This document shows positions 1,083-20,934 of a stretch of 64,000 nucleotides of DNA, piece after piece. The stretch's first letter is position 1. Each line of letters opens with the position of its first letter. A program made the translations under genes and the position numbers. This DNA is from a virus: the IMG/VR virus record IMGVR_UViG_3300035661_000042, positions 1-64,000 of that record, one strand, 5' to 3'. The notes below the pieces were generated by a model, which was not told the origin of the DNA, searched no databases, and saw only the letters and a program-made list of their open reading frames with translations.

Positions 1083-2924
1083 TTACAACGGCAGCAGCAG
1101 GAATTCGAGAACAGAACCCACTGGTGGTGCTGTAAAAAATACGACGTTTGTGGAAGTAATTGATGATACTCCTGTTTCTTTGTATGCCAGGTCTGTTGTA
1201 ATGCTTGTGTTTACGGGAGCAGAACTGGTTGGCATTGATTGGAAATAAGTACCAACACCGTATGAGATCGTTACATTCGATCCGTTGCCTGACGTATTGG
1301 ATTGAATTATCAAATCCATAGTATCATAACGTTGATCGAGGTTGACTGTTGCTGGAATTGTAAGCGTCGTAAATGCGGACGTCAAGCTTGCAACCATTTG
1401 AAGATACGTATACGAAGCTCCAACAACAATTGTTACACTTGAATATAGCGTTCCATCAACAGTAATATTGAACGCATATACTCCGTTAGGGATTCCAATC
1501 ACGCTCTTTGGACTAATTGGCGTATCTGTGAATGTGATTCTACTCATACCACGTTCGCAACAATATTGCTTAACACCGTCCATTGATATTGATAGACGAT
1601 TCTCGCTAACTTGGTATCCCATAAAAGCTGAAAGATTGAATGACGTAGTTGTTCCGTCACCAATCACAATCTGTCGTTCAATACGTTGCGTTAGACCAAT
1701 CAACGTTTGATCTAATGATCGAATTGCATTAGATGTAGGAATAACCGGGTATCCACCCGTCGCCACTTCTGAAATTATCAGAACACTTCGGCTGTACAGA
1801 GGAGATGCCAGATCGTACGTGATAGCGCCAGTTGTGTGCCCGTGGTTAAACGGTGCCATTGTGCCGGTTACTGTAACGTCAGGTAATCCGAGAGTACGCT
1901 GTAATGTCAGAACACCTGTTGAACTGGTGAACACACCACCATAAACCACACCGTCGCTGACCGCGGAAGGTGGTAGTCCTGCGATTGCGGTTAAAATTGC
2001 GGTATCTACATACAACTTGGTTGTAGCATCATTGTTGAGAGACGGAGCACCCAATTGCTGGATGCGAACAAGACCGAGGTTAATTGAACTCGAACCGCCG
2101 CCAACAAACGTGATAGAACCAGTCGACGAGAACGCCAAGTTCCCTGTCATTGTATCGCCAGTTGTCACAATAAAATTGGGCAGTTGGCTGTTAATGGTAG
2201 CAATATCACCCGTTAACACTGTGTCCGCATTACCACGTGTTATTGCCTCTGCATTAACCAATCCAGTTACAACCGCGTCTCTTGCATCAACGTATGATTT
2301 GTTTGCAACGTGCAATGCAGATGAAGGAGTATCAGTAACAGATACTGCAACACCGGCATTATATACGACCGTACCACCTGTAAATGTTGTTGCTCCCGCA
2401 GTAAACGCAACACCACCAGTAAGAGTTCCGCCCGCCAGCTGCAAGTACCGACCATCGGCCGTATTGCGATTGAGAGCATCTGTTCCGGATACTGCATTTC
2501 CAAGACTTGTGATCAGCGCGCCGCCCAAGTCAACATTACCAAAAATGTTAGCAGCAAGAACTGGGGTCCAAGCTGTTCCGCTGTATACAAATAGACCAGC
2601 TACCGTAGGGTCTGACGGAAACGAAGGATCGGTATAGTTTGCATTCTTGTACCAAATTTGGCCTTGAACGGGTGTAAGAGGCCGACTTTTATACGCAAAA
2701 TGCTCCATCAAGTAGACCAGATCATTCTGAACCAATTCACCGTAGTCGGTGATGCCTCGACCTGCAAGAACCAGCGAAGAGTTAGACGATAGTGCTGTTA
2801 ATCCTGATACAGGATTAACGTATAGTCCAGCAGACCACGGACGAGTTGTACCATCAATCTGATCAGATTGAACGAGAAACGACCCATTCGCTGGATCGGA
2901 GCGCTTTATGACGTAGTTGGACAT
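1083..2924 (-). CDS. putative virion structural (baseplate/fibre) protein, 613 aa; N-terminus paralogous to 10747..12081
   Basis: L.L.GRG...YGE.V..DLV.L.E.FA....P....GQ.W motif shared with the 444-aa ORF; fibre repeats DALNRNTAD, HVANKSYVD, DATTKLYVD; own late promoter. Confidence 0.7.
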   Translation of the reverse strand: MSNYVIKRSDPANGSFLVQSDQIDGTTRPWSAGLYVNPVSGLTALSSNSSLVLAGRGITDYGELVQNDLVYLMEHFAYKSRPLTPVQGQIWYKNANYTDPSFPSDPTVAGLFVYSGTAWTPVLAANIFGNVDLGGALITSLGNAVSGTDALNRNTADGRYLQLAGGTLTGGVAFTAGATTFTGGTVVYNAGVAVSVTDTPSSALHVANKSYVDARDAVVTGLVNAEAITRGNADTVLTGDIATINSQLPNFIVTTGDTMTGNLAFSSTGSITFVGGGSSSINLGLVRIQQLGAPSLNNDATTKLYVDTAILTAIAGLPPSAVSDGVVYGGVFTSSTGVLTLQRTLGLPDVTVTGTMAPFNHGHTTGAITYDLASPLYSRSVLIISEVATGGYPVIPTSNAIRSLDQTLIGLTQRIERQIVIGDGTTTSFNLSAFMGYQVSENRLSISMDGVKQYCCERGMSRITFTDTPISPKSVIGIPNGVYAFNITVDGTLYSSVTIVVGASYTYLQMVASLTSAFTTLTIPATVNLDQRYDTMDLIIQSNTSGNGSNVTISYGVGTYFQSMPTSSAPVNTSITTDLAYKETGVSSITSTNVVFFTAPPVGSVLEFLLLPL

Positions 2925-2998: not shown

Positions 2999-4279
2999 TT
3001 AAACCATACGAATGTCGCTATTGAACAACAACTTGAAAGCAGCAAGTTGAATTGCGCGGTAGTGAGTCTTCTCAACTGCACAGTTGGTATAGTGCACTGC
3101 TTGACCCAAATCCAGCGGGCACGAACTCTTGCACAGCCGACGAACTTCACACGTTCCACAGTGATAATCACGATTTAGGTTGACTTGTTGAATCTTGATA
3201 CCTTTGAGGTACATCAAGTTCCCACCGTTGTAAGATTCGTCAACGTTTTGGCACGTCCGCACGTTACCAAGCAAATCCATTGTCAGCAGCCTGCTGTCGT
3301 CAACTCCGCAGTTGGATTTAAGCAGTGGAACCTTTTGTTCTTGGAGAGTGCGAGCAAACGGCAACACACCCAACCCCGTTTGGAATAGATTGTTCGCTAA
3401 CATATCGCCCTGTGTTGTTTCACCAAGGCGTCGGAACTGCTCAATATGCGAGTCCAAATAGCGAGTCAGGATCTCCTTATACAACGGGATATGTTCACCG
3501 CTAATAACATGGTGAGTTGAGTTTTCTGCCATCTCTTTGTCATATACTCTGCCCAGCTCATAACTCAACTGCTTATGTTTGAGGTTGTTCTGTTGGAAGA
3601 AGTCAAGAAAGAAGTCGTTAATTTTGAACAAATCGTAGTTTGTGCGACTAATCACAGGGTTGAAGCTATACTGGATCTTTTGACCACCCTCTTCTTCGAT
3701 CCGCTGAAAGATCTCAACCTTCTTGTGGATGAACTCTTTACCACGAAGCGTTTCATGACCGGGGCCGTCGTGTGAGATGCCCATTGCAACATTGCCCTTC
3801 AATTGTTTGAAGAAGTCGATGTGCTTGTGCATCAACGGCGTTCCGTTTGTCGGGACATACCACGTGATTCCTTCGCGGTCAAACTCTTCCATCAAAGGAA
3901 CCATATCCTTCCAGTACAGCAAGGTTTCACCGCCCCACAGCTCAAACCGGAGTAGTTCTGATAGGTCGAGGTGACGCTTGATCTTCTGGATTAGCATTGG
4001 GGTTAGCCCGTTCTCTGGCCTTTCGTTTGGATTACCGATGTCTTTTTGCATGCAGTATCCACAGCTATAATTACATCCTTGGCCAAGAGAAATTTTGATT
4101 GTTTCGGGGTTCTTTACAACATGTGTTGCGCCAAAGCGATCTTTCAGCTGATTCCACTCTGCTGGTTCTACAAATGGTTTGCTCAACGGGGCACCTGCAT
4201 CTGTGTACAACCCATTATTAGCGTTGTCATACAAGAAGTGTTCGCCAGTGCGAAGGATTTCAAATTTAGTTACACTCAT
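2999..4279 (-). CDS. radical SAM/SPASM-domain protein (rSAM-D, 426 aa)
   Basis: CNYSCGYC (CxxxCxxC), LWGGET, TNG; C-terminal C..GNVRTC..CGTCEVRRLCKSSCP..C auxiliary Fe-S motif. Confidence 0.92.
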   Translation of the reverse strand: MSVTKFEILRTGEHFLYDNANNGLYTDAGAPLSKPFVEPAEWNQLKDRFGATHVVKNPETIKISLGQGCNYSCGYCMQKDIGNPNERPENGLTPMLIQKIKRHLDLSELLRFELWGGETLLYWKDMVPLMEEFDREGITWYVPTNGTPLMHKHIDFFKQLKGNVAMGISHDGPGHETLRGKEFIHKKVEIFQRIEEEGGQKIQYSFNPVISRTNYDLFKINDFFLDFFQQNNLKHKQLSYELGRVYDKEMAENSTHHVISGEHIPLYKEILTRYLDSHIEQFRRLGETTQGDMLANNLFQTGLGVLPFARTLQEQKVPLLKSNCGVDDSRLLTMDLLGNVRTCQNVDESYNGGNLMYLKGIKIQQVNLNRDYHCGTCEVRRLCKSSCPLDLGQAVHYTNCAVEKTHYRAIQLAAFKLLFNSDIRMV

Positions 4280-5460
4280 GATGTGCTTTCAACGATGGGA
4301 ATATGTAGTGGAGGGCGCAGCGGAACAGGAGAAAACATAAAGAGTGGTCTCACAGCACCAGACGTACAGTTAGGATCAAACAATCCATATTGCGTTTCAA
4401 TCCATCCCTGTTCTTGCAGTTTACGGTACAACCGCACCCACGGTTTGAGTATGATGCGAGGCACAAAGTTGTAGTGTTGGTCAACGACTAAGGTTGACGA
4501 CAAGTATGAAAAGTACTCATAGTGCGGATTGTTTGTCTTATTGGTAATTTCCCGTGCATATCGCGCATACAAATCCAACTTTGCTTGAAGGCTCTTTGCA
4601 ATGAAATGATCTATGTCGATAATCCCGTCACGCATGATATCGTAGTAAGGAACACTCGATGCAGCGGTGGCGTCACTCAACGTGAGAAGAAGCGAAGTGT
4701 ATTGTAGATACACAACTTCGCTGATTACTTGCATTGGTTCCGATCCCTGTGCGTAGTAATTTAGCTCTTGGTAATCAACAGAATCAAGATTCAGACGTAA
4801 GTTTTGACCTTGGGTAATGTCATCATGCACCCCAACATATATTCCAAGCGAGTGTGCAAACTCGACAAATCGCACGACGGGCTCTGATTGTTCGCCATTA
4901 GCAGTGCGAACAATCACTTTCAGCTTTGAGATAGGAGAGCGTGCGTGAAGAAGTTTCAACTTTTCTATTACGTCATCAACCATTCGACCTTGTTTCTTTC
5001 CAAGAAACACATCACTAAATGAGATCTCGTACACGGTTTTGAATTGGACGTCTTCCATCATGATTTTGTACTGCTGTACGAACGCATTATCTGTCATCTG
5101 CGTTGAAGCCATGCGATGAGCGTTTCGTTTGTAAAAATCAAACAAATGTGGATAGTTGTTCTTGATGTAGTACAGGTCATCAATCGTGCTAATTGTGTCA
5201 AAGCAGTCGAAAAATTCAAGAATGCGCTTCTCTGTCGCCTCGCCAATCACATGAGGAACATATGCGTCAAACTTGTCATCTGGCATCCAAGCATCACGCA
5301 AGTAACACATCTTGCAGCCGGCCTTACACATATACTTGACGAAAATTGAGAACACAAGTTCACGAGAGATGTTTTCCAATGCATCCCACTTCAAGAAGTA
5401 TTCCTTGAAGTTAGTGCTATTTTCAACGCCCGGTGTTACCTGCTTTTCTGCTTCAATCAT
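4276..5460 (-). CDS. divergent radical SAM-like protein (rSAM-C, 394 aa) without SPASM domain
   Basis: CKAGCKMC motif; likely start ATG 5460 overlapping the upstream TGA (ATGA); no GGEP and no C-terminal Cys cluster. Confidence 0.7.
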   Translation of the reverse strand: MIEAEKQVTPGVENSTNFKEYFLKWDALENISRELVFSIFVKYMCKAGCKMCYLRDAWMPDDKFDAYVPHVIGEATEKRILEFFDCFDTISTIDDLYYIKNNYPHLFDFYKRNAHRMASTQMTDNAFVQQYKIMMEDVQFKTVYEISFSDVFLGKKQGRMVDDVIEKLKLLHARSPISKLKVIVRTANGEQSEPVVRFVEFAHSLGIYVGVHDDITQGQNLRLNLDSVDYQELNYYAQGSEPMQVISEVVYLQYTSLLLTLSDATAASSVPYYDIMRDGIIDIDHFIAKSLQAKLDLYARYAREITNKTNNPHYEYFSYLSSTLVVDQHYNFVPRIILKPWVRLYRKLQEQGWIETQYGLFDPNCTSGAVRPLFMFSPVPLRPPLHIPIVESTS

Positions 5461-6536
5461 ATTCCTACCCAGTGGAAAAATGTTGGTTGTTGTTTGAGTT
5501 TTTGTGCGTGTTGTATTACTACCATCAACATCTGATAGAATTGAGCACATTTATCAGTTTCGGGGTCAGTTTCAAAGATTCCGTGCAGGTATTTCAATCC
5601 ACACAGATCCCTTGACGGACACACTTGACACTTTGGACGGAGCATCTGGTCTTCTTGCTCTTTTGTTTTGATTCGTTCAACAGATACAGGATCTCTCCAT
5701 CTGCCAACAGTAGTTTCTGTTCGTTTGTATTCAAGGAAATCAAACTCCGGATACAGGTATCCATCAGGTGACAGCACCAGTTGTTTGTGGTCGTTAAAGT
5801 AATGCTTGTCAAATCCGTTTCCGTGCCCGTCAATTACAACATCGATTCCCATCAGATATAGCATCTGAACAAACTTCAAAAAAGCATCAAAGAATTGTGG
5901 TAGATTGAGTTCATCGATAATAACACGAAACTTGTCCTTGCCACGAATGTGGCGCAGAGGAATCAATACAATTCGCCGCACATCGTTCTTGTGACAAATA
6001 TCAGTGATCGACTTTATTGCTGCGAGGCTGAATACTTTTGGATCCGTTACAGGCATTACGTACTGAAATTGCCTTCCACGTACTCCCGTTTCAGCCATCA
6101 TTTTCAGCGTTGGATTGATCTCAAACAGCGAGCGATTTAGGTCCTGATACATGAAGTCATAGCTGATGCTAATTTCCAACCGAGGACCCCACTTTTCAAA
6201 GAACCAACGGTGCTGCAAAATCTGACTTCCATTGGTTTGGATGTAGAATGGATAATCACCAGGCACAGATTGAACAATTGCATCCATCATTTTGTCCATA
6301 ATCTTCACATACGAGAATGGTTCACCACCGTGGAATGTGAACATTCCAGGAGGAGACGCAGCAATTCCTGACTTCTTGAAGAAGTCAATGATATACGGAA
6401 GATCGTCGAGCGTCATATGTTGCCCACCGATAGAATCTTTGATGTAATCTCGATCGCAATATGTGCAATTGAAGTTGCACACGTTTCCAAGATATATCGT
6501 AATCGTTCGGCACCCCGCAAGAGAGGTAGGAGACAT
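5457..6536 (-). CDS. radical SAM protein with partial SPASM domain (rSAM-B, 359 aa)
   Basis: CNFNCTYC, FHGGEP, QTNG; C-terminal CQVCPSRDLC..C; the GxxxPC position reads DGYLYPE. Confidence 0.9.
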   Translation of the reverse strand: MSPTSLAGCRTITIYLGNVCNFNCTYCDRDYIKDSIGGQHMTLDDLPYIIDFFKKSGIAASPPGMFTFHGGEPFSYVKIMDKMMDAIVQSVPGDYPFYIQTNGSQILQHRWFFEKWGPRLEISISYDFMYQDLNRSLFEINPTLKMMAETGVRGRQFQYVMPVTDPKVFSLAAIKSITDICHKNDVRRIVLIPLRHIRGKDKFRVIIDELNLPQFFDAFLKFVQMLYLMGIDVVIDGHGNGFDKHYFNDHKQLVLSPDGYLYPEFDFLEYKRTETTVGRWRDPVSVERIKTKEQEDQMLRPKCQVCPSRDLCGLKYLHGIFETDPETDKCAQFYQMLMVVIQHAQKLKQQPTFFHWVGI

Positions 6537-8254
6537 TACAGCTTGACTATTTTGTGCGGTTTCGATAAGCCATCACCCTTCTGGTTCAACAGAACCATAT
6601 GAACCAACGCAAGATAAAATGTGCGCTTGTTCACATCATTGATATCACCTTCTGAAACACTTGCTGTTACAGGCTTGCCCGCGGCAGTAAGGAGATATTC
6701 ATACAGGGCTTTGATATCAATAGGCCATGCAGTGATGGTAGGAACGTAATCATCAGCATCATCCAGTGCAGTGACCTTGTTTTCCATTAGACCAATAAAT
6801 TGACCAATGATTTGTTCATATGGTGGTAACTTATCAGCAAATTGATCGACTTCATCAATAGCCAAATGTACACGATTGATCTTGTTATACATCAAGTGTG
6901 TCAATGCCTTGGCAAACGTATACTGCTCACCCTTTGTTGCGACGGATTCAACCAGTTGTTGGAATTTTTGGTTGAACGTCTTACGCACAATGTCGTTTTG
7001 TAGTTCAAGGAATAGTCGAACAATGCTTTGACACATGGCATCAGGACGGAACAATCCACGACCCGTATCAGCTTGCCCTGCTGGACACTGATAACAGAAT
7101 CCCTTCAAGTCACAGGCTTGGCACTGTGGTTCCTTGATGAACATTTCGTTGTAAATGTCTTGGAAGCTTGCGTAGCGATCAACATATACCGCATCATGCA
7201 AGAGGTTTCCAAGGATTGTATGTGGGACAGACTCTTTGAGATTGGTGAAGAAGTGGCATCCAGAGAAATCGCCCGACGCATCGACAGCAATCATGTCAGA
7301 TCCAACCATGCAGTTGTTTCCACCCTTCGCGCCAACTCCCTCGGAAAACTGAACCTCAAAGTTTGGAAGTGTGTTGATTACTGTTAGCACACTTTGGTGC
7401 AAAGCTTCCCATCGTTCAGCATCCCACGTCAAGTGTCCGTCAACGGAACTGTTTGTAAGCGGGTGAATCACGATTGCACGGAGTCCCTTATCGTATAGCC
7501 GAGTGCAGAACTCTACAAGACGTGGAGCGTTCTCAATTGCGATTGTGCAACGCACGCTGACCATGTGATTATTTTTGTGGTATTCAGGAATCAACCCGAT
7601 CATGTCAATGATGCGGTCGATGCGGTCTTGCCCAATTTCACGGTGGTCGATTTCAGCAATGTCGGTGTCCAAACTAACGCTCATACACACGTGCTTGCTT
7701 TGAAAATATTCGTCAATGAACTGCGGCGTTAGCAGGATACCGTTGGTAATGATGCCAACAGCGGTTGTCGCAGAGTTCTTCTTTAATTCTGCGTCGTACG
7801 TACGGAGGAAATCAAGAATCAACTGCTTGTGAATCAACGGTTCACCACCAAAAAACTGAAACAGCTTACCAGTCTTTGGATTACAAGCGACGAGGAAATC
7901 ATACAGTTGCTTCAAGCTTTCAGGGGTAAATCGGCCGTAATCCTTATCGTGCTGTTCATAGCAATACGAACAGCTTAGGTTGCAAGCGTTGGTGACAATC
8001 AAGTTCATGTGTTGGAGGTCTTCAAACAACTCGTACACTGCTCCCGTCTTCATCACTCGTTCGGCTTGGTCAGGACGAATGGATTTATATGCAACTTCCT
8101 TTACGTCACCCCGCGGTGTAATAATCGTACGAACCGATGTGTCAAGTGTTCCATCAGCATTGACTTTGACAGAGGCTTGGTGTGAGTCAATTCGTTGCTG
8201 TTGAGCCTCCGTTAGCGCGCGCTTTGGATAGAATTTAACTTCTGTTGTTTTCAT
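6536..8254 (-). CDS. radical SAM/SPASM peptide-maturase-like protein (rSAM-A, 572 aa)
   Basis: TNACNLSCSYCYE, FFGGEPLI, ITNG; CMVG..GDFSGC..CQACDLKGFCYQCP..C; likely start MKTTEVK at 8254; TAATG junction with the next gene. Confidence 0.92.
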   Translation of the reverse strand: MKTTEVKFYPKRALTEAQQQRIDSHQASVKVNADGTLDTSVRTIITPRGDVKEVAYKSIRPDQAERVMKTGAVYELFEDLQHMNLIVTNACNLSCSYCYEQHDKDYGRFTPESLKQLYDFLVACNPKTGKLFQFFGGEPLIHKQLILDFLRTYDAELKKNSATTAVGIITNGILLTPQFIDEYFQSKHVCMSVSLDTDIAEIDHREIGQDRIDRIIDMIGLIPEYHKNNHMVSVRCTIAIENAPRLVEFCTRLYDKGLRAIVIHPLTNSSVDGHLTWDAERWEALHQSVLTVINTLPNFEVQFSEGVGAKGGNNCMVGSDMIAVDASGDFSGCHFFTNLKESVPHTILGNLLHDAVYVDRYASFQDIYNEMFIKEPQCQACDLKGFCYQCPAGQADTGRGLFRPDAMCQSIVRLFLELQNDIVRKTFNQKFQQLVESVATKGEQYTFAKALTHLMYNKINRVHLAIDEVDQFADKLPPYEQIIGQFIGLMENKVTALDDADDYVPTITAWPIDIKALYEYLLTAAGKPVTASVSEGDINDVNKRTFYLALVHMVLLNQKGDGLSKPHKIVKL

Positions 8255-9149
8255 TGTTGAGTACCACGTACTTGAATGTTGGGTGTTCGGTTGGGCGAGC
8301 TTGATCAAAAAGCAACCCACAGTGAAATTGTATTTCAAAGTATCCTATACCATGCGCAGGAGTAGCAACAACAAATGACCCATTTACTGTGGTGTATTGC
8401 AGATTAGTATCAACCGTCCACTGTGCATTCGCCAGTATATTAGCGGGATCTTCTCGTTTGAGAATTGAAATAGGGCTGGTGAGAAACGATAAGGTAAATG
8501 TTGGTTGTGTTGTGATAATTACGTTACCAATCACCCGGGCTGGATCTTCGATAGTTGGAATGAGAAAGTGTTGGCACAGGGGACCATCTTTTTCAGACAA
8601 CAAGAACCACATCGCTTGTGCAGGCACATCATAGAAATCAAATCCATCTGTTGCATGGACAAGATCAGAATTTAGAATCAAGCTGTATACGGGGAACCCT
8701 GCGAACCGAACTGCTCCAAAAAATGCCGTAATCATTGTACCAAACTTTGACTCAATTGGGAGATTAGTTTCAATATCGATTACAACTCCGTCTGCCGTTC
8801 GAGCGAAGTATTGGGCTTTTTCAATTGCTTCTGTGTCTTTGGTTATGTGGTGCGAAGCAAGTACACCAAAAATGACGTACTCATACTTATCAAGCGCCGT
8901 AGTTATGAGATCAAGATCAATTGGGCGAAAATATGATGGATGCTGTACGCGGAGAGACGGATCTGTTTGGTAGTGCGCAATAGCAAAAGCACTGGTTCCG
9001 TTTCGTGTGTTGTTGCGTACTAAACGCAACCCTGGTTCTACCCTGTGATAGAATCCAATTTGAGGTAACTCGTCGGGGTTTACAACAGTGGTGAAATCCC
9101 CAAAAAGAGACGGAGTTCTATCCCCTTCTCTGACCAGAATGTACTTCAT
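8235..9149 (-). CDS. hypothetical protein in the rSAM operon (304 aa)
   Basis: starts 3 nt after the peptide gene stop and overlaps the rSAM-A start; no recognisable motif. Confidence 0.75.
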   Translation of the reverse strand: MKYILVREGDRTPSLFGDFTTVVNPDELPQIGFYHRVEPGLRLVRNNTRNGTSAFAIAHYQTDPSLRVQHPSYFRPIDLDLITTALDKYEYVIFGVLASHHITKDTEAIEKAQYFARTADGVVIDIETNLPIESKFGTMITAFFGAVRFAGFPVYSLILNSDLVHATDGFDFYDVPAQAMWFLLSEKDGPLCQHFLIPTIEDPARVIGNVIITTQPTFTLSFLTSPISILKREDPANILANAQWTVDTNLQYTTVNGSFVVATPAHGIGYFEIQFHCGLLFDQARPTEHPTFKYVVLNNENNRS

Positions 9150-9152
9150 AGG

Positions 9153-9356
9153 TTACAGAATACCACGGGAGCAATTGCAGTTACAATTGCAATTGCAGGC
9201 GGTACTATAATCGTCATAGAAGATATGTGTGTGAGACACTAATTCATTCAAAATGCTAAGCATATTTTGAAATGTAGCAGCATTCACTTCATTACCTGCG
9301 GTAACAGTAGCAACTGTACCAGCAGCAGTTGTCTTTGTACTTGTGGATTCAGACAT
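9153..9356 (-). CDS. putative rSAM-modified precursor peptide with C-terminal (CN)4C core (67 aa)
   Basis: ends ELVSHTHIFYDDYSTACNCNCNCNCSRGIL; AAGGA SD upstream; fills the gap between neighbours exactly; upstream of four rSAM genes. Confidence 0.8.
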   Translation of the reverse strand: MSESTSTKTTAAGTVATVTAGNEVNAATFQNMLSILNELVSHTHIFYDDYSTACNCNCNCNCSRGIL

Positions 9357-9378: not shown

Positions 9379-10737
9379 TTACAACACGGGAAGGGGTTGG
9401 ACAACAGGTAATTGAGGAATTACACTATCCCAGTCGAGCGTAGTATAGTCAAAGCCTGCTTGGTTGACACCGGCACCAACTACATATCCATTGACAATAA
9501 TTGGTGAACCGTTTGTGCGTGGAAGGTACAGTCGTGTGTTTGGATCAATAACTGATCCTGTACTTACTGTGTTAGTTTTCCATCCGTCTACGTGAGCCCA
9601 ATCAACAGCCTGATTGCCACCACGCATTGATTGATTATCTAACAGACCACCAATTTCCCCCGATGCTGCTTCTGCTTTCCACATTACTGGATTAGCTGAC
9701 CACCACCACTGTGATTGATTGGCATCACGTGTCCACATTGCGTGTTCTTCGGACCAGCTCAATGAATTGTCTTGGAATGTTTTCATACGGCGGCCGCCCA
9801 GGAACGGGCGGTCCATTGATATGACAGGTTCGGGATGACCCATTCCCATGATCATATCTCCCACATCAACGTCTTCAATCAATTTCCACGTTCCGTCTGC
9901 CATTAACACAAAACTACCGGCAGGAAAACAAGTGAGAACTGGTGGAACATATGTATATTCTGTACATTGAAGTGTGATTGAGGCAGTATCAAGTACTGCC
10001 AACGTCGAAGCGCTGCGAATTTGGACAGTTAATACTGATGTGATTGTGGTGTCTACTGCACCACTTGCAAGTGTCCACGAACGTGTAGTTCCAAGATTTA
10101 ACCACGTTCCAAGCGGAGATCCTGTCACAGATGATCCGCTTGATACTGTAACATACACATCGTAAGACGCTGCTGTCGTTAAGTCCACTGGCGCCATCGT
10201 ATTCCACTCAGCTCCTGTTGCTCCACCAGTATATGATAGTTGTCCATCATTAGCAAGGACGAGAGTAACAGAAGTTGGAGCAGAATCAGACCAACTATAC
10301 GTTTGAGCAGTTATGCTCGCCGTTTGACCCGTCACCCCAACACCGTCAGTAATCGTGTGTGAGTGAACCCGCATATTGTTGATCATGGCAATCAACACGT
10401 TAATGTCAGCAGCAGTAATTTGTGCATCAGTTGCAATTCCACCAGGCGTAGTAACAGCCCCGTATGCAGGCGTTGTTGCAAATGTTGTTTGTGATAGTAC
10501 TGTTCCACCTACCCCGTATGTTGTAACATTACCAAACGTATCAATTCCTTGAATATCTGTTGCACTGTGCGTATGACTGCGCCAGAGATTGTATACAGAG
10601 CTGTTGAGGCTGGCGAGATCAGACGCATATACAGACTTGCCCGCTGCCATCGCCACAATCAAGGCATTAACCACCGCTTGCATTGTTGCAATTGTGTATC
10701 CCAGAGGTGTAGAAGTTGTCGTTGAAACTTGTGGCAT
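9379..10737 (-). CDS. putative virion protein with C-terminal Hint (Hedgehog/intein-like) domain (452 aa)
   Basis: TCFPAGSFVLMADGTWKLIEDVDVGD (block A), SEEH (block B), LYLPRTNGSPIIVNGYVVG (blocks F/G without His-Asn); two HxH modules in the N-terminal part. Confidence 0.8.
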   Translation of the reverse strand: MPQVSTTTSTPLGYTIATMQAVVNALIVAMAAGKSVYASDLASLNSSVYNLWRSHTHSATDIQGIDTFGNVTTYGVGGTVLSQTTFATTPAYGAVTTPGGIATDAQITAADINVLIAMINNMRVHSHTITDGVGVTGQTASITAQTYSWSDSAPTSVTLVLANDGQLSYTGGATGAEWNTMAPVDLTTAASYDVYVTVSSGSSVTGSPLGTWLNLGTTRSWTLASGAVDTTITSVLTVQIRSASTLAVLDTASITLQCTEYTYVPPVLTCFPAGSFVLMADGTWKLIEDVDVGDMIMGMGHPEPVISMDRPFLGGRRMKTFQDNSLSWSEEHAMWTRDANQSQWWWSANPVMWKAEAASGEIGGLLDNQSMRGGNQAVDWAHVDGWKTNTVSTGSVIDPNTRLYLPRTNGSPIIVNGYVVGAGVNQAGFDYTTLDWDSVIPQLPVVQPLPVL

Positions 10738-10746
10738 GATCCGTCC

Positions 10747-12081
10747 TTATGCGTACACAGCTGGATATACTTGCTTCCAGTTGCCGCCAGGAGGGCCGCC
10801 TGATCCACCGGCATTTGCGATATAGATTTTTCCCGAATCAATTGCAATGTCACCAGCTTTGTATACGCCAGACGTCCAGATGATAGGAACACCTGCGCCA
10901 ACACCTGCGCCAGCAATTGCTGCTGTCATTTGCGAAACGTTTACTGCATCGTTGGCATTTGTTCCAGTAGCAAGATTAACGATCTTGCTACTGTTCATGC
11001 TCAACTGTCCGCCGTTAATGTTGGCAGCACCACTAACGGTTAGTGTGCTACCAATCGATGCGGTTGTTCCAACAACCAAAGCACCACTTGCTGTTAGCGT
11101 GCCTCCTGATGTAATTGCACCCGCCGTTGAGATGGAGTTCAACGACGCCAACCCTGACGAAGATAGTGTTGTGAACGTGGAGTTCACGCTGTGTATGACA
11201 GTTCCAGCGCTGAACGTCACAGAACCTATTAGTGTACCACCAGATAATGGGAGGAACACGCCGGCGCCGCCACCTGATACCAAACTGGTTACTTGTGCCA
11301 GCGTTGTTGCATCTTGTGCACCAACGGCATTTGCCATTCCAGTAATTCTAAACGAACCCATTTCCAGATTACCGCTGGCCGTTGAAAGAGCCGCTCCTGT
11401 TGGACCAAGAATTTCCTGCCACGCAGCACCAGTGTATACAAGCAGATTACCTGTCGCTGTATTGTACCACAACATACCAGTAAGTGGTAGACTTGGAGTT
11501 GTGCCAGAGACGATAGTTCCTGACGGCGTATCCCACGTCGCTGTTGCTGCATTATAGACGTGAACGTTAATCTGGGGTGTAACTGCTGGGGAGATTGGTA
11601 CTGCACCCCCGATGATATAGGAACGTGGCAACCATGCAGCTGGTTCATACTTGCCAAGCGAATAGTAACCAAATAGAGTAACACCGTTGCTGTAATACTC
11701 ACCTTCAATTGGAGATACTGATGCAGTTCCTGATACAATGCCTGTGCCGTTGAGAAGTTTCCATTTGTTTGGAGCAACTTCCTTGATATCGTAGTAGTAC
11801 CACCCTTGCAGTACGTTACCGATCAAGGTATTACGATAGTACAGCGTTTGCTCTACCCACGTTTGACCGGTGATTGCGTAGCTTGGTGATGAAGCACTTG
11901 CAAAGTTTTCTGTCAAACGGACCAAGTCTTCGTCGACAGCCTCGCCCCATTCAAGTGCTCCGCGACCATACAACCGAAGAGATGTGTTGGCAGACGAACC
12001 ACCTGGGCCGTTGAAGCCGCCGGCTGGAATGCTAAAACTACCTTTTAGCGGGTCGGAAAAGTCGATTGCATATGCTGACAT
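10747..12081 (-). CDS. putative virion structural/fibre protein (444 aa), paralog of 1083..2924
   Basis: shared N-terminal domain; GMLWYNT..LLVY.GAAW; DATTLAQV and DAVNVSQM fibre repeats. Confidence 0.7.
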   Translation of the reverse strand: MSAYAIDFSDPLKGSFSIPAGGFNGPGGSSANTSLRLYGRGALEWGEAVDEDLVRLTENFASASSPSYAITGQTWVEQTLYYRNTLIGNVLQGWYYYDIKEVAPNKWKLLNGTGIVSGTASVSPIEGEYYSNGVTLFGYYSLGKYEPAAWLPRSYIIGGAVPISPAVTPQINVHVYNAATATWDTPSGTIVSGTTPSLPLTGMLWYNTATGNLLVYTGAAWQEILGPTGAALSTASGNLEMGSFRITGMANAVGAQDATTLAQVTSLVSGGGAGVFLPLSGGTLIGSVTFSAGTVIHSVNSTFTTLSSSGLASLNSISTAGAITSGGTLTASGALVVGTTASIGSTLTVSGAANINGGQLSMNSSKIVNLATGTNANDAVNVSQMTAAIAGAGVGAGVPIIWTSGVYKAGDIAIDSGKIYIANAGGSGGPPGGNWKQVYPAVYA

Positions 12082-12144: not shown

Positions 12145-12897
12145 TTAGATCCCCATTTCACCAACCAACATTTTGATCTTTGCAACTTCGTCGGGGTGTT
12201 GCGCGAACTTGTCTGGCCAATAGCTCGGTCTGATTAGATTTTCGAGGATGATTTTTTGCTCTGCGTTTGTGCGATGAACAAATGCATCTTTGAACGTTTT
12301 GCTGAACAACAGCAGCCACGGAGATAACTTCCGTACGTGTAAAAGGTGAATAATCGCCTGTATTGGCATATGATTGAACACTTCGGGAATTGCAATTTCG
12401 TGCTTGTCGCTGTATGCCATCACTGTTTCAATCGACAAGGTTGCGCTCTCCATTCCCGATGTCTTACGGTCGAGGAATTCAAGGTAGATTGAGTACACGT
12501 CGTCATTCATCCACATTGTAGGTGAATAATCCTTTGTTACCATCAGCCAAATGAACTTCTCCACTCTTGGCAACTCTACGCGTTTGGAAAAGTTGACAAA
12601 GTTGATGAACGTACGGAAGTATTTTGACGATAAGAAAGCAGGGCCCGGTGGTGGCATGCGCTTCATTGCACGCATCCACAGTTGATAGTAGTGCCACGCA
12701 ACTTGGCCTGTGGGTGAGCGAAACTCCTCCTCACGTTTCATTTGCTTACACTGATGCGCGAGGTAACGCCCCTCCAACACAAACACTTTATGGCATGACT
12801 TACAAGTGAAGCGTGATTGAATAGATGAGCGTCGGTCCTGCATATGTTCTATGGTTGTTCTCAACACAGGTGGCTCTCTTAATTTGAAATAATCCAC
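12145..12897 (-). CDS. hypothetical protein with N-terminal zinc finger
   Basis: FTCKSCHKVF..EGRYLAHQC zinc-finger-like motif; start may be at 12843. Confidence 0.65.
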   Translation of the reverse strand: MDYFKLREPPVLRTTIEHMQDRRSSIQSRFTCKSCHKVFVLEGRYLAHQCKQMKREEEFRSPTGQVAWHYYQLWMRAMKRMPPPGPAFLSSKYFRTFINFVNFSKRVELPRVEKFIWLMVTKDYSPTMWMNDDVYSIYLEFLDRKTSGMESATLSIETVMAYSDKHEIAIPEVFNHMPIQAIIHLLHVRKLSPWLLLFSKTFKDAFVHRTNAEQKIILENLIRPSYWPDKFAQHPDEVAKIKMLVGEMGI

Positions 12898-13844
12898 GCA
12901 TTATCGTGTGAAACCTTTGTATCGTAAACAGAGAACTCTGCGTGAACATTGCCAACCGTCCACTTGGTCTTCAAGTTATCAACTGTGAATTCAAGCATTC
13001 CTGCGAAAATTTCATATGTTCCAGTCTTCTCACGCAGGGTAACCATGAGAACGACAGATCCATCTGCGTTCTTCTTGAACAGGTTTTGTGATGCGTGGAG
13101 ATTGATACCATTCATCTTGTATTCTGCAATCATTGCCCGCAGTGCTGGTAGATCTGGCTCTTTGAGAGTGACAGGGATGTGAGCTTCAAAGTAGCAATTT
13201 GTTGGCATTGGTTGGTTATCAACAGGAGCTGCCGGATGCCAGGGGACGGTTTCAATTTTGATACGAACAACGCTCAAATCACACTGTGCAAGTGATGCAG
13301 CGAGATTTTGAGCGTAGATATACGCTGTGCGGTTGGTTCCAAAGTGCTTTGACGACGTCATTGCGTCTGTCATTGCTGTTGTGCCGTTGGGGGTTTGGAG
13401 ATCGAGAATGATTGGTTTGCAATGTAGTTGCTTGCATATATCACGAAACATCTCAATATATGTGTGAGGGAAATCTTGCGTAACAGGGACGGGCAGCGCC
13501 ACTGTGATGTGAATCTCATACGGAAGTGGGTACTTGATCTCGTGTTCTTTGCTTTGCAACAGCGCCCACTTCTCTGCCTTTCGACTGAACATCTCATCGA
13601 CTTCATCGTCAGTAAAATCAAGGTCATACGCAACGGACAGAGCGCACAACACAGTATCAACAGCCTCTTCGAGAATCTGTTCGCGCTCGACAAATCGGTG
13701 AGTTGTCGCGTATGCGTTGTCAAAAGGCAGGGCAGCCTTCGCAAGCTCGCCAAATTCTTCACCAACTTTTAGTGTCTTTTGTGAGAGAGTTTTGCGGTCT
13801 TGCTTCGACAAGTACCGGACGTATTTGAGAAATTCAGGAGTCAT
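12879..13844 (-). CDS. MazG-like nucleotide pyrophosphohydrolase fused to an uncharacterised C-terminal domain
   Basis: LKVGEEFGELAKA...EEAVD all-alpha NTP-PPase motif; C-terminal YEIHITV..RIKIETVPW..YFEAHI domain. Confidence 0.7.
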   Translation of the reverse strand: MTPEFLKYVRYLSKQDRKTLSQKTLKVGEEFGELAKAALPFDNAYATTHRFVEREQILEEAVDTVLCALSVAYDLDFTDDEVDEMFSRKAEKWALLQSKEHEIKYPLPYEIHITVALPVPVTQDFPHTYIEMFRDICKQLHCKPIILDLQTPNGTTAMTDAMTSSKHFGTNRTAYIYAQNLAASLAQCDLSVVRIKIETVPWHPAAPVDNQPMPTNCYFEAHIPVTLKEPDLPALRAMIAEYKMNGINLHASQNLFKKNADGSVVLMVTLREKTGTYEIFAGMLEFTVDNLKTKWTVGNVHAEFSVYDTKVSHDNAWIISN

Positions 13845-14386
13845 CAGTATTCCAGTAATTGATCTACCAGTTTGGGTTTTTTACCTTTGACAGGCTTCTC
13901 AGGAGTATCCTCCTTTTCCTTGTCAACCTTCAACTCACGCCGGATCTTCGCAATCTCGTCTGGTTGCCAGCCGAGCTGTTCTGCCAAGCCAATAATATCA
14001 TCTCGCGACAGGATGTCAAGTACGTCAACAGCTTCTTTGGTACTGTACTTGAAGAATTGACGAATTACCTTGATCGTTGTTGGCTTTCCCGATTCACGCT
14101 TTGCTGGGAGTTTATTCCATACATATCGCTGCTTTCTACCGGAGTTACACACTGTTAGCAATTGCCAAAGCAACTGCTTGTGGGATGTTAGGGAAAACAT
14201 GTACGGATTGGCAAATTCGTTGATCAACACAATCTGACCAGGATCTTGTGTTCCAGACATCCAGCGCGTAACGAGGAACGGAAGAAAAGTCTTCCGTTCC
14301 TCATCAGTTAGCTTTTCGTAGAAATCTTCCTGCTTGGCATCAGCTGCACCAAGCACTCGGAAGATATCAAGTCTTTCTGTTGCCAT
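13844..14386 (-). CDS. gp62: clamp loader small subunit (T4 gp62-like)
   Basis: EERKTFLPFLVTRWMS..INEFAN..HKQLLW..IRQFFKYSTKEA pattern; close to the clamp-loader ATPase. Confidence 0.7.
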   Translation of the reverse strand: MATERLDIFRVLGAADAKQEDFYEKLTDEERKTFLPFLVTRWMSGTQDPGQIVLINEFANPYMFSLTSHKQLLWQLLTVCNSGRKQRYVWNKLPAKRESGKPTTIKVIRQFFKYSTKEAVDVLDILSRDDIIGLAEQLGWQPDEIAKIRRELKVDKEKEDTPEKPVKGKKPKLVDQLLEY

Positions 14387-14515
14387 TTTTGTTGGTTCAA
14401 AGAGTAAAAGGTATATAGTTGTTGCATTTCTTGTATCGTCGCATCGCTTTTTAGTCGGTTAGCACGCTCACCCTCATGAAGACTGCTGCAACATCGTTTT
14501 GTCGACATGTGTAAA

Positions 14516-14863
14516 TTACACCGTTTTTCTTGCTACTTGGTGAGCAGAAAATCTACGAGCACAAAACTTGCACTCCACAATCTCACCCTTATGGGCAAGC
14601 ATTTGGTATGGATGAACACAATCACGAACCATATCACGCCGCAGCGTAGAAATATCGTCAATGATTGGAGTCTTCGTTGCCATCAGGTCGAGGATCTGTT
14701 CTTCAATTGGACGTAGTTTTGCAATCAGCGAAACCATATTATCCATCTTGCGGTCCCACGATACCTTTTCACTGCGTGTTGCGTTGTCTGCGATAACTTC
14801 CAACACCCGACGTTCTTCTGTTTGTTGTGTTGTCTCGCCTTCTGGGCGCTTCCTGCGCGCCAT
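14516..14863 (-). CDS. hypothetical protein (coiled coil plus C/H zinc ribbon)
   Basis: CVHP...CKFC; coupled to the upstream gene. Confidence 0.6.
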   Translation of the reverse strand: MARRKRPEGETTQQTEERRVLEVIADNATRSEKVSWDRKMDNMVSLIAKLRPIEEQILDLMATKTPIIDDISTLRRDMVRDCVHPYQMLAHKGEIVECKFCARRFSAHQVARKTV

Positions 14864-15495
14864 TATCCCACCACCTTCATTGCGTGTTCGTAAGCAGTTG
14901 CAGCCAGTCTTTCAGCACGTTCGGCTCGGACCTCTTCGATGTACTTAACAGCACGACTATTTGGTGCGTATGCGCCTCCAAAATAGTAATCTTCTGTGAT
15001 AGCCTTTGGATCGTACGTTTCAGCAGCTTCGCCTGTTGCAAGATTGAAGGTGAAACTTGGCCCGGCCACAGGATTGACACCATCAATCGTAGAGTACCCA
15101 ATTGAACTGTTCTTTAGCATCATGTGCTCGGCAGTAAACGAAGCTTCACCGAGCGTAAGACGATCATCACGATCAGCTTCTGCGGCAGCCTGCAATTCCC
15201 GGTTCATTTCAGCAAGGGTAATTGCTGCTGATTTCCACATATCCATTGCTGACTCCAACTTCTGAACGCGCTGTTGTAGGTCAGCAAGTTGATCAACAGG
15301 ACTGTATGGAGTGCCAGTGAACGTAATTCCTTGGCCTGCTCCAACAATGTTGCCAACAAAATATGGTGACGAAGAGCCAACGGAACCTTCGAGATGTGAA
15401 AGTAAAGTAACGGCGCCATCAGGGTACGGTTCTGTTGGTAATGTAATTGAGTTGGCGTATTCGTATATACCGAACGTTGTCTTCTTATCAGTCAT
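14863..15495 (-). CDS. hypothetical protein (about 210 aa)
   Basis: likely start MTDKKTT at 15495 with AAGGAG SD; the longer ORF-track start overlaps gp44. Confidence 0.6.
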   Translation of the reverse strand: MTDKKTTFGIYEYANSITLPTEPYPDGAVTLLSHLEGSVGSSSPYFVGNIVGAGQGITFTGTPYSPVDQLADLQQRVQKLESAMDMWKSAAITLAEMNRELQAAAEADRDDRLTLGEASFTAEHMMLKNSSIGYSTIDGVNPVAGPSFTFNLATGEAAETYDPKAITEDYYFGGAYAPNSRAVKYIEEVRAERAERLAATAYEHAMKVVG

Positions 15496-15505
15496 GTTGT
15501 TCTCC

Positions 15506-16441
15506 TTATAGTTGACCGAGGCGTATAAACAATGCTGCTGCGTTGATCTCTGGATCTGCAACAATTGTGTTTTTATAGAGGTGTTCAGCAATTGCAAGAA
15601 TTGCTTCTTCCCACTTTTCGTTGTTACTAAATTTTGGAGCACGTGAAATGTTCTCATACAAGAACCGATACACGCTCTCCCATTCGTCTGATGTAACACT
15701 TGAACACACAAGCTTACGGGCTTCAACCCACTTGTTTGATTCTATCAGATCAATCAGTTTGAATTTATAATCGCCCGTTTCTCCGGATAACGTTGGAGCT
15801 TGCAGTTCTTTATCGACTGTATTTTGTTGTAGCAGATTTACCATCTTGCGTACATCAGGATATCCGTAAGCAAGGTACTTGTCAAGTAGATCAAGGTCGA
15901 ACTTAACACCCTCTGTTGCTAAAATTCGAATCAAGTATTCAGCAATGTCATTCGAATCCGCTGCGCGGAAGAAGAACTCTTGGCACCTTGATCGAATTGG
16001 CGCGATGATCTTATTAACGTGGTTGCACGTCAAAATAAACCGGACAAACTCGCTCGTCTCTTCCATGAACCTCTTCAATGCAGCCTGTGCTTGTGGCGTA
16101 AGCATGTCTGCTTCTTCAAGGTGGACAATCTTGAACCGCCCCATAGCCATCGACATGGCAAAGTTTTTAATCTGGTTACGAAACGTGTCAATTCCGCGCT
16201 CATCTGACGCATTGATTGTTAGTACGTCCGTGTCATCTAACTCCATCGATCGTATCAAAATCTGGGCCAATGTTGTCTTACCGCTACCTTGTACGCCTGA
16301 CAACAGTAGCTGTGGAATTGATTTGTCGTTAATCATACGCATTACAGCAGCCTTCTGCTGTGCGTCATGAAAGATGTAATCAGTTACAGACTGCGGCCTG
16401 TATTTTTCTACCCACAACAAGTGGTTGTTATTCTGTGCCAT
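15506..16441 (-). CDS. gp44: clamp loader AAA+ ATPase subunit (gp44/RFC-like)
   Basis: LWVEKYRP, GVQGSGKTT, INASDERGID, EEAD, SRC motifs. Confidence 0.95.
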   Translation of the reverse strand: MAQNNNHLLWVEKYRPQSVTDYIFHDAQQKAAVMRMINDKSIPQLLLSGVQGSGKTTLAQILIRSMELDDTDVLTINASDERGIDTFRNQIKNFAMSMAMGRFKIVHLEEADMLTPQAQAALKRFMEETSEFVRFILTCNHVNKIIAPIRSRCQEFFFRAADSNDIAEYLIRILATEGVKFDLDLLDKYLAYGYPDVRKMVNLLQQNTVDKELQAPTLSGETGDYKFKLIDLIESNKWVEARKLVCSSVTSDEWESVYRFLYENISRAPKFSNNEKWEEAILAIAEHLYKNTIVADPEINAAALFIRLGQL

Positions 16442-16448
16442 CAAAGGG

Positions 16449-16496
16449 TCTCCTTGGCTTATCTTATAATTATACAACAAGCCAAGGAGAAATCAA
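16449..16496 (-). promoter_or_regulatory. sigma70-like promoter (TTGATT-16-TATAAT) within a 12-bp inverted repeat covering the gp44 SD
   Basis: -35 at 16491-16496, -10 at 16469-16474; TCTCCTTGGCTT/AAGCCAAGGAGA at 16449-16460 and 16479-16490. Confidence 0.6.
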
Positions 16497-16499
16497 CGG

Positions 16500-17963: not shown

Positions 17964-17974
17964 ACTATTCTCCG

Positions 17975-18544: not shown

Positions 18545-18570
18545 ATGGTTTTATGCTTTCTGTATGTTTG

Positions 18571-18789: not shown

Positions 18790-18798
18790 ATATGTCTC

Positions 18799-19696: not shown

Positions 19697-19721
19697 GGTA
19701 TGTCCTTTGTTTATCCTTTGT

Positions 19722-20916: not shown

Positions 20917-20934
20917 GATATGAGTGTACCTTGG

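Follow-up and report, generated by a model that had tools for sequence, protein, structure and literature searches.

A window of 64,000 nucleotides (nt), which is the first 64 kb of the 81,132-base IMG/VR virus record IMGVR_UViG_3300035661_000042, was analysed with a focus on a gene cassette on its minus strand. The completeness of the record according to CheckV is 24%, and the record is thus a fragment of a large phage. The original prediction had pointed to a 67-amino-acid (aa) open reading frame (ORF) with a Cys-rich tail (called the peptide for simplicity), a 304-aa orphan (ORPH) and four proteins with a CX3CX2C motif as candidate radical S-adenosylmethionine (SAM) enzymes, and the minus-strand ORF list of positions 2999-9356 bears this inventory out. 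The four proteins are called rSAM_A, rSAM_B, rSAM_C and rSAM_D (or A to D) in the order of transcription, and the gene directly upstream of the peptide encodes a protein with two helix-HxH (His-x-His) modules (called the HxH protein). The junctions are as tight as had been claimed: the peptide and ORPH are separated by a gap of 3 nt, and the remaining genes overlap, namely ORPH and rSAM_A by 20 nt, rSAM_A and rSAM_B by 1 nt, and both rSAM_B and rSAM_C and rSAM_C and rSAM_D by 4 nt (ATGA). These values are based on a start of rSAM_A at ATG 8254 (residue 29 of the longest ORF, which covers 6536-8338, encodes 600 aa and starts with TTG 8338) and a start of rSAM_C at ATG 5460 (residue 31 of the longest ORF, 4276-5550, 424 aa). 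The coordinates of all features are collected in Table 1.

The window peptide ends in five Cys alternating with four Asn, followed by S-R-G-I-L. The codons of this tract are mixed, as had been noted, but only barely so, with one TGT among the five Cys codons (TGC, TGC, TGT, TGC, TGC) and one AAC among the four Asn codons (AAT, AAT, AAC, AAT). A collection of 5.8 billion proteins contains 65 clusters of the peptide family at E <= 9.8e-13 (one being the window's own), and the contigs carrying them reach 361 kb; the peptide matched no Pfam or NCBIfam family. When 44 of the 65 clusters are aligned, all 14 invariant residues (L36, L39, H42, H44, D48, D49, Y50, T52, C54, N55, C56, N57, C58 and G65) fall within positions 36-65 and the N-terminus is variable, and because of this conservation the peptide cassette is more than a chance arrangement. 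Each of the 27 distinct tails follows the pattern C-[NDEQ]-C-[NQ]-C... and contains 3-6 Cys, after which come a single variable residue and R-G, which is invariant: the first Cys is followed by N, D, E or Q, the second by N or Q, and the later inter-Cys positions are occupied by N, Q, A or D. A (Cys-Asn)4 repeat is therefore not the conserved feature it had been taken for, since the residue between the Cys varies.

Variants of the peptide were seen as well. In a metagenomic homologue of 206 aa (P0067), the Cys tail is interrupted by some 135 inserted residues, which begin like a Hint domain or an intein and after which the peptide profile regains the last residues (i-E 0.34); the insertion matched no Pfam family and did not match the Hint profile, and it gave one weak BLAST match to a Hint-fusion protein (E 0.002). 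The loci L061, L062, L066 and L069 combine a peptide tail of only three Cys with an HxH gene placed between rSAM_C and rSAM_D.

The HxH proteins form a family with a median length of 129 aa, consisting of two copies of a helix followed by H-x-H-x3-D, in which H55, H57, D61, H125, H127 and D131 are invariant (22 homologues); in the window protein, a beta-rich part and a Hint domain are added, which brings it to 452 aa. Residues 12-48 of the peptide align to module 2 of the HxH protein (hhalign probability 90.8%, E 1.2e-6), and the H-x-H-x3-D motif is invariant in all three modules, two of them in the HxH protein and one in the peptide. Judged by these alignments, the front half of the peptide is a paralogue, i.e. 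a third copy, of the helix-HxH module of its neighbour. A metagenomic protein of 230 aa (P0069) unites three HxH modules and a Cys tail in one chain, and a search among longer proteins returned one (P0068) with a Pro-rich linker and a domain of 170 aa behind the module and the Cys repeat. Prediction of the complex between peptide and HxH protein yielded an interface score (ipSAE) of 0.64, as compared to 0.00 for the best of three controls; the mark of 0.64 is reached by 58 of 80 solved complexes and by 2 of 110 mismatched pairs, these counts being approximate because our own alignments were used. At least 80% of the contacts agree between the docking runs, and the predicted local distance difference test score (pLDDT) of the partner is at least 65. 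The peptide is hence predicted to dock on the HxH protein, with an interface that includes peptide residues 2-50 and leaves the Cys tail outside. Based on the paralogy, the predicted docking and the fusion in P0069, the front half of the peptide is, as far as alignments and models can tell, not an ordinary throw-away leader. The HxH profile matched no solved chain by sequence (best E 1.8). In locus L029 (7122-8282), the two HxH modules are split by a 230-aa glycine-rich domain (Pfam Gly_rich_2, E 6.3e-13).

All four enzymes were confirmed as radical SAM proteins. The CX3CX2C motif is invariant in the distinct homologues of each of them (A 25/25, B 20/20, C 22/22, D 21/21), and A, B and D score above the Pfam cut-off for Radical_SAM (PF04055; 53.9, 34.7 and 37.6 bits, respectively, versus 29.5 bits). 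rSAM_C matched phrog_36229 (E 6.5e-52) and no Pfam or NCBIfam family, and is identified by its fold together with the invariant motif: when its model (pLDDT 89.0, predicted template modelling score (pTM) 0.88) was compared to 48,161 solved chains, every one of the 11 best matches was a radical SAM enzyme, headed by MoaA (Z 12.1, root-mean-square deviation (rmsd) 4.6, 247 residues aligned), SuiB (Z 11.5), ChlB (Z 10.8), SkfB (Z 10.3) and anSME (Z 9.9); NifB (Z 7.0) and HydG (Z 6.1) are also among the fold matches. The enzymes differ in the conserved Cys beyond the radical SAM triad. rSAM_A has eight, a full SPASM-type set (C119/123/126 plus C264, C343, C361, C406, C409, C415, C418 and C436; 25/25), rSAM_D has six (C69/73/76 plus C324, C343, C374, C377, C383 and C387; 21/21), rSAM_B has four, enough for one auxiliary cluster (C20/24/27 plus C303, C306, C312 and C330; 20/20), and rSAM_C has none (C75/79/82 only, in the numbering of the 424-aa ORF; 22/22). 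The SPASM domain model TIGR04085 scored 19.3 bits on rSAM_D, below its cut-off of 27. The core identity between A and B, A and D, and B and D is 22-29%, and pairs with C gave no significant match (E 0.15-0.26); because they form separate orthologous groups with this low core identity, the four enzymes are not redundant. In locus L053 (= L021; 8399-10400), an additional rSAM_A-like gene (424 aa) and a gene for a 242-aa protein are inserted between rSAM_C and rSAM_D.

The closest families of the enzymes are peptide maturases. The best NCBIfam match of rSAM_A is PapB (NF047865; E 4.5e-36), followed by QhpD (TIGR03906), the CXXX-repeat maturase (TIGR04115), the nif11 maturase and the SCIFF maturase; rSAM_B and rSAM_D match the same kind of families more weakly (33.1 and 29.8 bits for PapB, versus a cut-off of 340). 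rSAM_A belongs to none of the first three families: it reaches 124.7 of 340 bits for PapB, 74.4 of 453 bits for QhpD, with no dehydrogenase genes in the neighbourhood, and 69.8 of 350 bits for the CXXX-repeat maturase, the Cys being placed here at every second and not at every fourth residue. Its closest solved sequence is 5wgg (E 1.7e-10), which we take to be CteB and whose entry title refers to a study of thioether bond formation in sactipeptides; 8vpo, TigE according to its title, is also among the closest solved sequences of the enzymes.

These data bear on an alternative in which the Cys ladder and the HxH motifs bind a metal or an iron-sulfur-type cluster and the enzymes build or insert this cofactor without any cross-linking. 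Runs of C-x-C are typical of metallothioneins, and both C-x-C and HxH are classic metal ligands. Some radical SAM enzymes assemble metal cofactors, NifB and HydG being among the fold matches of rSAM_C. In the fibre tip of T4 gp37, according to the available text of PMC11705849, seven iron ions are bound by HxH pairs that follow the axis. However, the best sequence families are peptide maturases and not cofactor maturases, metal binding does not need the strict choice of N, D, E or Q between the Cys, and no other gene of the module resembles a cofactor pathway, which makes a cofactor site quite improbable as the purpose of the enzymes.

Conservation of the cassette as a unit was investigated in viral loci that had been retrieved with rSAM_C as the only bait. 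Viral contigs yielded nothing when scanned with the single rSAM_C protein, and 48 loci when scanned with the rSAM_C alignment; 40 of the loci extend more than 700 nt upstream of rSAM_A, and in the other 8 the contig ends inside the cassette. Peptide, HxH protein and the enzymes A, B, C and D are present in that order in all 40 upstream-complete loci, which encode 34 distinct peptide sequences, and ORPH is present in 37 of them. This supports the proposal of a single functional unit made up of the peptide and the four enzymes; a radical SAM cluster devoid of the peptide, named beforehand as an observation that would speak against the proposal, was not encountered among the 40 complete loci. A scan of viral contigs with the peptide alignment gave 27 loci, and among single-representative genomes of 185,579 species a single locus was found, on a 25.6-kb contig of a metagenome-assembled genome. 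The cassette was thus found only in phages. Its only cultured relatives, as seen by blastn and tblastn against cultured phages, are the Ralstonia jumbo phages RP12 and RP31. RP12 is syntenic with the window and has a 65-aa ORF of the same design between ORF074 and ORF075; this ORF (L001 14431-14628, minus) is unannotated in record NC_041911.

To place the Hint domain of the window HxH protein, its relatives and their neighbourhoods were examined. The domain covers the C-terminal 184 aa (9379-9933, minus), with its first Cys (Cys1) near residue 270, and scores 29.5 bits for Pfam Hom_end_hint, below the cut-off of 32.1, which is exceeded by its homologues in gp028 of Achromobacter phage JWF (47.5 bits) and in the loci L039 (40.2 bits) and L045 (40.0 bits). 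It has 646 relatives at E <= 0.001, almost always at the extreme C-terminus of proteins of many lengths among the matches listed. E63 and H64 are invariant in 14 relatives, and in the rows listed Cys1 stands at the aligned start of the domain with few exceptions. In 23 of the 133 listed matches with an aligned N-terminal end, a Cys repeat (at least C-x-C-x-C) directly precedes Cys1, and in several of these 23, e.g. P0186, P0208 and P0217, H-x-H is found shortly before the repeat. We also considered that the window Hint domain ligates the HxH protein to the peptide and dropped the idea, as the peptide has no N-terminal Cys and the Hint domain is found only in close relatives of the window.

Distant homologues of rSAM_D were detected by tblastn in phage JWF, phage 2-1 and Ralstonia phage RSP15, and by profile they are of the D type: JWF gp030 and RSP15 ORF045 reach 178 and 156 bits with the D profile, as compared to about 50 bits with B and some 30 with A. 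JWF gp030 lies in the tail-fibre operon, and gp028, encoded two genes upstream and annotated as similar to the fibre connector T4 gp36, ends in a Cys repeat with Asn or Asp between the Cys, which is directly followed by a Hint domain (45% identity to that of the window protein). Nineteen Hint loci were therefore compared, comprising 17 viral loci fetched through the Hint domain, JWF and the T7-like Providencia phage PSTNGR1. All six loci with a repeat (C-x-C-x-C within 45 residues before Cys1; JWF, L037, L039, L040, L042 and L045) have a D-type enzyme (144-178 bits) 0-2 kb downstream, whereas none of the 13 loci without a repeat has one in the fetched flanks (Fisher exact p 3.7e-5, related loci being counted separately). 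No enzyme with A, B or C as its best match was found in the Hint loci, and of the four types rSAM_D alone also accompanies Cys repeats that form part of fibre proteins in other phages. Given the fibre context of gp028 and this association, the combination of Cys repeat and D-type enzyme is a feature of fibre proteins. In RSP15, ORF048 (L032 3386-4258), which is annotated as a side tail fibre and has a short C-Q-C motif at its end and a D-type enzyme two genes downstream, is a weaker piece of support for the same link. By comparison of these sequences, the window cassette looks like an elaborated version of the fibre-borne repeat with its D-type enzyme, in which the subunit has become detached. 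Judged by their family, the Hint domains are presumably self-cleaving, which suggests that the repeat in the six loci becomes the mature C-terminus and would then match the free C-terminal tail of the window peptide.

The Hint loci are varied in other respects. L037 and L042 are two places on one 109-kb IMG/VR contig, each with Cys repeat, Hint domain and D-type enzyme; at L037 there are two collagen-like copies in tandem, and Pfam Collagen repeats precede the Cys repeat in both proteins. In PSTNGR1 the Hint domain ends a 317-aa protein encoded after a 631-aa hypothetical protein, and no radical SAM enzyme is annotated in the fetched region.

It is conceivable, at somewhat less than even odds, that several unrelated phage lineages use radical SAM enzymes to staple a Cys-x-Cys repeat at the ends of fibres or on docked subunits, the repeat standing in for a disulfide knot in a form compatible with the cytoplasm. 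Such lineages would include the jumbo phages with the four-enzyme cassette and siphophage-type genomes, e.g. JWF, with one D-type enzyme next to a fibre protein which has both Cys repeat and Hint domain.

The co-occurrence data likewise speak to the idea that the enzymes act on another target, be it a nucleotide, a cofactor or another virion protein, and that the peptide merely adjoins them. Weak N-terminal similarity to the viperin, MoaA and QueE families would be in line with it, and in its available text the RP12 paper gives the enzymes generic names only, one of them being called MoaA-like (PMC5468394). These family matches, however, are restricted to the core common to radical SAM enzymes and fall far short of the cut-offs, and neither the fixed gene order in 40/40 cassettes nor the pairing of Cys repeat and D-type enzyme in 6/6 loci, as opposed to 0/13 unrelated Hint loci, would be expected for a bystander peptide. 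We attach next to no weight to this idea.

Taken together, we favour, with a probability of about one half, that the cassette is a phage maturation system for a small structural subunit and not a pathway for a free antibiotic; sequences and models point to the enzymatic cross-linking of a fibre-associated protein. In the predicted complex, peptide and HxH protein would dock into a three-module bundle which brings six His and three Asp together and which, by analogy, would be similar to the axial metal sites of trimeric phage fibres. The Cys tail with its R-G would stay outside the interface and serve as the substrate of the radical SAM enzymes, with the D-type as the core enzyme for the Cys repeat and A, B and C possibly adding further, non-redundant steps. 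The likeliest chemistry would be a thioether between a Cys sulfur and the beta or gamma carbon of the adjacent Asn, Asp, Glu or Gln. In the reducing cytoplasm, links of this type would fix the tail covalently, and the finished complex would then join the fibre or the host-recognition apparatus. The thioether is the most speculative part of the mechanism, and is proposed by analogy: it fits because the nearest families are peptide maturases and because the first two inter-Cys residues are always N, D, E or Q. Known beta or gamma thioether acceptors, as far as covered by the available text of PMC8326336, are found in Cys-Asn links of NxxcA, Cys-Asp links of freyrasin and Cys-Asp or Cys-Glu links made by QhpD.

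The same genes could in principle encode a true RiPP (a peptide made by the ribosome and modified after translation), whose front half would be a leader that the enzymes recognise and that a host protease cuts off once the tail has been cross-linked, with the free peptide acting on the host or on competitors. The layout, a short ORF followed by radical SAM/SPASM enzymes, is RiPP-like, the best enzyme families (PapB, SCIFF, CcpM, CefB) are those of RiPP clusters, the closest solved sequences (5wgg, 8vpo) are RiPP maturases, and genes of the tailoring type are seen repeatedly in subclades: about 10 loci have a DUF3050 haem-oxygenase-like protein after rSAM_D, L005-L010 have a class III aminotransferase on the opposite strand between the HxH gene and ORPH, and L011-L013 and L026 have a ferritin-like protein. 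From its position and length we guess that the DUF3050 gene is the one called MgoB-like by the RP12 authors. A free peptide is nevertheless unlikely. No transporter, protease or immunity gene recurs in the neighbourhoods of the related loci, as had been noted for the window, and the earlier view that the product is probably not a secreted bacteriocin is supported at that strength. Furthermore, conservation is reversed as compared to most RiPPs, with the core and the adjacent module near-invariant and the N-terminus variable; the would-be leader is a paralogue of the neighbour protein and is fused to it in P0069; and the same Cys repeat, together with a D-type enzyme, ends fibre proteins of 300-500 aa in other phages. 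The four enzymes also had no PqqD domain/RiPP recognition element (RRE) detectable by Pfam, which is weak evidence since divergent RREs may escape.

Several observations weigh against a maturation system of the kind we favour. The number of enzymes is one of them, because four enzymes for 3-6 Cys find no explanation in it. Since the third and fourth inter-Cys positions may be Ala, not every Cys can have a carbonyl-bearing acceptor as neighbour. The pseudo-trimer of the window carries Cys in only one of its three modules, for which reason an inter-chain staple comparable to a collagen Cys knot does not suit the window version. All NCBIfam matches of the enzymes are far below the curated cut-offs, so that the chemistry is not readable from family membership. 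The association of Cys repeat and D-type enzyme shrinks to 5/5 versus 0/10 if near-duplicates (L039/L040, L043/L044, L047/L048 and L038/L049, judged by eye from the pre-Hint stretches and without computed identities) are collapsed, and L038, one of the loci without a repeat, has only about 1.9 kb downstream of the Hint gene. In the RP12 record, ORF074 (the HxH homologue) and ORF075 (the ORPH homologue) are called hypothetical proteins, the two genes before ORF074 being annotated as virion structural proteins. Mass spectrometry identified 32 proteins in the RP31 virion, as given in the available text of PMC5468394, and the cassette proteins may have gone undetected in the RP12 and RP31 virions. 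Finally, the fibre block is directly preceded on the same strand (12145-21954, minus) by genes for clamp loader, helicase, MazG-like and GroES-like proteins, and because it follows replication genes, late expression is not established. The late virion operon of the original prediction is thus retained only in part: fibre-like genes do flank the block, but its late timing is not backed by the promoter scan, which was uninformative (29 promoter-like sites versus 25.5 expected), as was the terminator scan (5 sites versus 13.3 expected).

A further point against thioether links is that rSAM_D scores 39.2 bits for the anaerobic sulfatase maturase family TIGR03942 as compared to 35.8 bits for QhpD, i.e. 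on a par with any thioether family. Anaerobic sulfatase maturases turn Cys into formylglycine. The substrate might hence be the same and the chemistry another, with the D-type enzyme oxidizing Cys to formylglycine or another reactive group, or making alpha-carbon (sactionine) links, and with the other enzymes acting on the new group; the aminotransferase present inside the module in L005-L010 could for example turn an aldehyde into an amine. The match of the rSAM_C model to anSME agrees with this, and alpha-carbon links would tolerate Ala at the third and fourth inter-Cys positions. On the other hand, the strict N, D, E or Q at the first two positions would have no role, the aminotransferase is limited to one subclade, and all scores are again far below the curated cut-offs. 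We consider such a chemistry unlikely.

In the surroundings of the cassette, fibre-like genes are recurrent, and most related modules are flanked by them. The window, L003, L015 and L021 all have such genes on either side of the module, and many other loci have, ahead of the module, genes for an approximately 1,800-aa protein (DUF4815), for a protein of 80 aa and for a fibre-like protein of 365 aa. The 444-aa protein upstream of the module in the window matches Pfam YadA_stalk (29.0 bits, cut-off 28.4) and Phage_T7_tail (25.3 bits, cut-off 25.2) as well as PHROG tail-fibre families, e.g. phrog_2710 (E 7.3e-8), and it clusters together with the 613-aa protein downstream. ORPH matched no Pfam, NCBIfam or PHROG family and has no invariant column among 23 homologues; its best viral match is an uncharacterised 295-aa RP12 protein (E 1.9e-17) of the same length as ORF075 at the orphan's place. 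In the ORPH model (pLDDT 82.7, pTM 0.80), residues 190-304 gave weak matches to beta-sandwiches with VIA-align (best Z 6.2, rmsd 3.1, 81 residues aligned), and Foldseek against the PDB returned one match at E <= 0.001 with a template modelling score of about 0.2, the N-terminal domain being barely tested. ORPH is probably not an enzyme, and its C-terminal domain is probably immunoglobulin (Ig)-like. The ORPH profile had no match in the Hint loci, and it matched neither RSP15 ORF047 nor JWF gp029 (hhalign probability about 0.1%), so that a helper common to one- and four-enzyme systems is not supported. Elsewhere in the window, a short piece of DNA polymerase (18799-19353) lies near an HNH endonuclease gene (19722-20516), and the polymerase may be split. 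Among public sequencing runs, six DNA runs contain the stretch or part of it, and no RNA run is listed.

Table 1. Position of the cassette genes and of the neighbouring fibre-like genes in the window, ordered in the direction of transcription.
Feature	Position	Strand	Remarks
Fibre-like protein, 444 aa, upstream of the module	10747..12081	-	Pfam and PHROG matches
HxH protein, 452 aa: two helix-HxH modules (1-135), beta-rich middle, C-terminal Hint domain	9379..10737	-	
Peptide, 67 aa: variable N-terminus, one helix-HxH module (~12-48), F-Y-D-D-Y, Cys/Asn tail, S-R-G-I-L	9153..9356	-	
Orphan (ORPH), 304 aa, probably with Ig-like C-terminal domain	8235..9149	-	
rSAM_A, radical SAM enzyme with full SPASM-type Cys set	6536..8254	-	likely start ATG 8254
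rSAM_B, radical SAM enzyme, 359 aa, four extra conserved Cys	5457..6536	-	
rSAM_C, divergent radical SAM enzyme without auxiliary Cys	4276..5460	-	likely start ATG 5460
rSAM_D, radical SAM/SPASM enzyme, 426 aa	2999..4279	-	
Fibre-like protein, 613 aa, downstream of the module	1083..2924	-	phrog_14394 'virion structural protein', E 5.8e-8
Tail-fibre-like protein, 290 aa	197..1069	-	phrog_12796 'tail fiber protein', E 2.8e-18

Bacterial natural-product pathways and a single enzyme subunit, QhpC, are the known settings of radical SAM peptide maturases. If the maturation of a fibre-associated subunit were true, a virion part finished by radical SAM enzymes would represent a new class of virion maturation chemistry and would explain the clusters of several radical SAM genes in the fibre regions of large phages, and RiPP enzymology would gain four new enzyme types with a defined and very short substrate motif. 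Should several unrelated phage lineages staple their fibres in this way, RiPP-type stapling would moreover become a general maturation step of the viral host-recognition apparatus. Iron-sulfur clusters are usually oxygen-sensitive, and the question arises whether the assembly, stability or binding of fibres may need radical chemistry and hence the iron-sulfur clusters of the host. The Ralstonia phages RP12 and RP31 and the Achromobacter phage JWF are cultured systems in which it can be addressed, and the Cys repeat with Hint domain and D-type enzyme offers a simple one-enzyme model of the four-enzyme cassette.

Searches of the literature on radical SAM enzymes in jumbo phages, RP12/RP31, JWF, tail fibres and phage-encoded RiPPs retrieved no description of the system, in agreement with the statement that no characterised substrate or chemistry is known for this arrangement. 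The enzyme type is of a known kind, and so is its occurrence together with a Cys-rich target. New are the architecture with four enzymes, the target of the C-x-C type, the docking module, the setting among fibre genes, and the association of Hint domain, Cys repeat and D-type enzyme. The nearest systems are the ranthipeptides/SCIFF peptides (PapB-freyrasin, CteB-CteA and NxxcB-NxxcA), which have in common with the cassette a radical SAM/SPASM enzyme beside a short Cys-rich ORF, PapB being the best family of rSAM_A. Their acceptors are beta or gamma carbons of Asn, Asp and Thr according to the available text of PMC8326336, and the same kind of residue lies between the Cys here. The cassette differs in having four enzymes of four conserved types instead of one, the best of them well short of the PapB cut-off, and in the spacing of the Cys, which take turns with the putative acceptors and are not 2-4 residues distant from them. 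It is moreover found only in phages, its 'leader' is a docking module common to the neighbour protein, and its chemistry is putative. In quinohemoprotein amine dehydrogenase, QhpD introduces Cys-Asp and Cys-Glu thioethers into the small protein QhpC, which is kept as a subunit of the complex, as described in the available text of PMC8326336. QhpD is the second-best family of rSAM_A, whereas the dehydrogenase, the haem subunit and the quinone cofactor context are lacking here and the partner is a fibre-type HxH protein. The CXXX-repeat system, the third-best match of rSAM_A, likewise combines a Cys-repeat target with a radical SAM/SPASM maturase, and differs with respect to spacing (C-x-x-x versus C-x-C), peptide family, number of enzymes and the HxH partner. 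With the HxH sites of the T4 gp37 type the cassette has in common an invariant H-x-H in three modules predicted to pack together, but the modules stem from two chains (2 + 1) and not from a homotrimer, and their metal binding is putative. Self-cleaving C-terminal domains of fibres and Hedgehog-type Hint domains, finally, are the counterpart of the Hint domains which follow the Cys repeat in JWF, L037, L039, L040, L042 and L045, while the Hint domain of the window, itself below the Pfam cut-off, belongs to the HxH protein and is not preceded by a Cys repeat.

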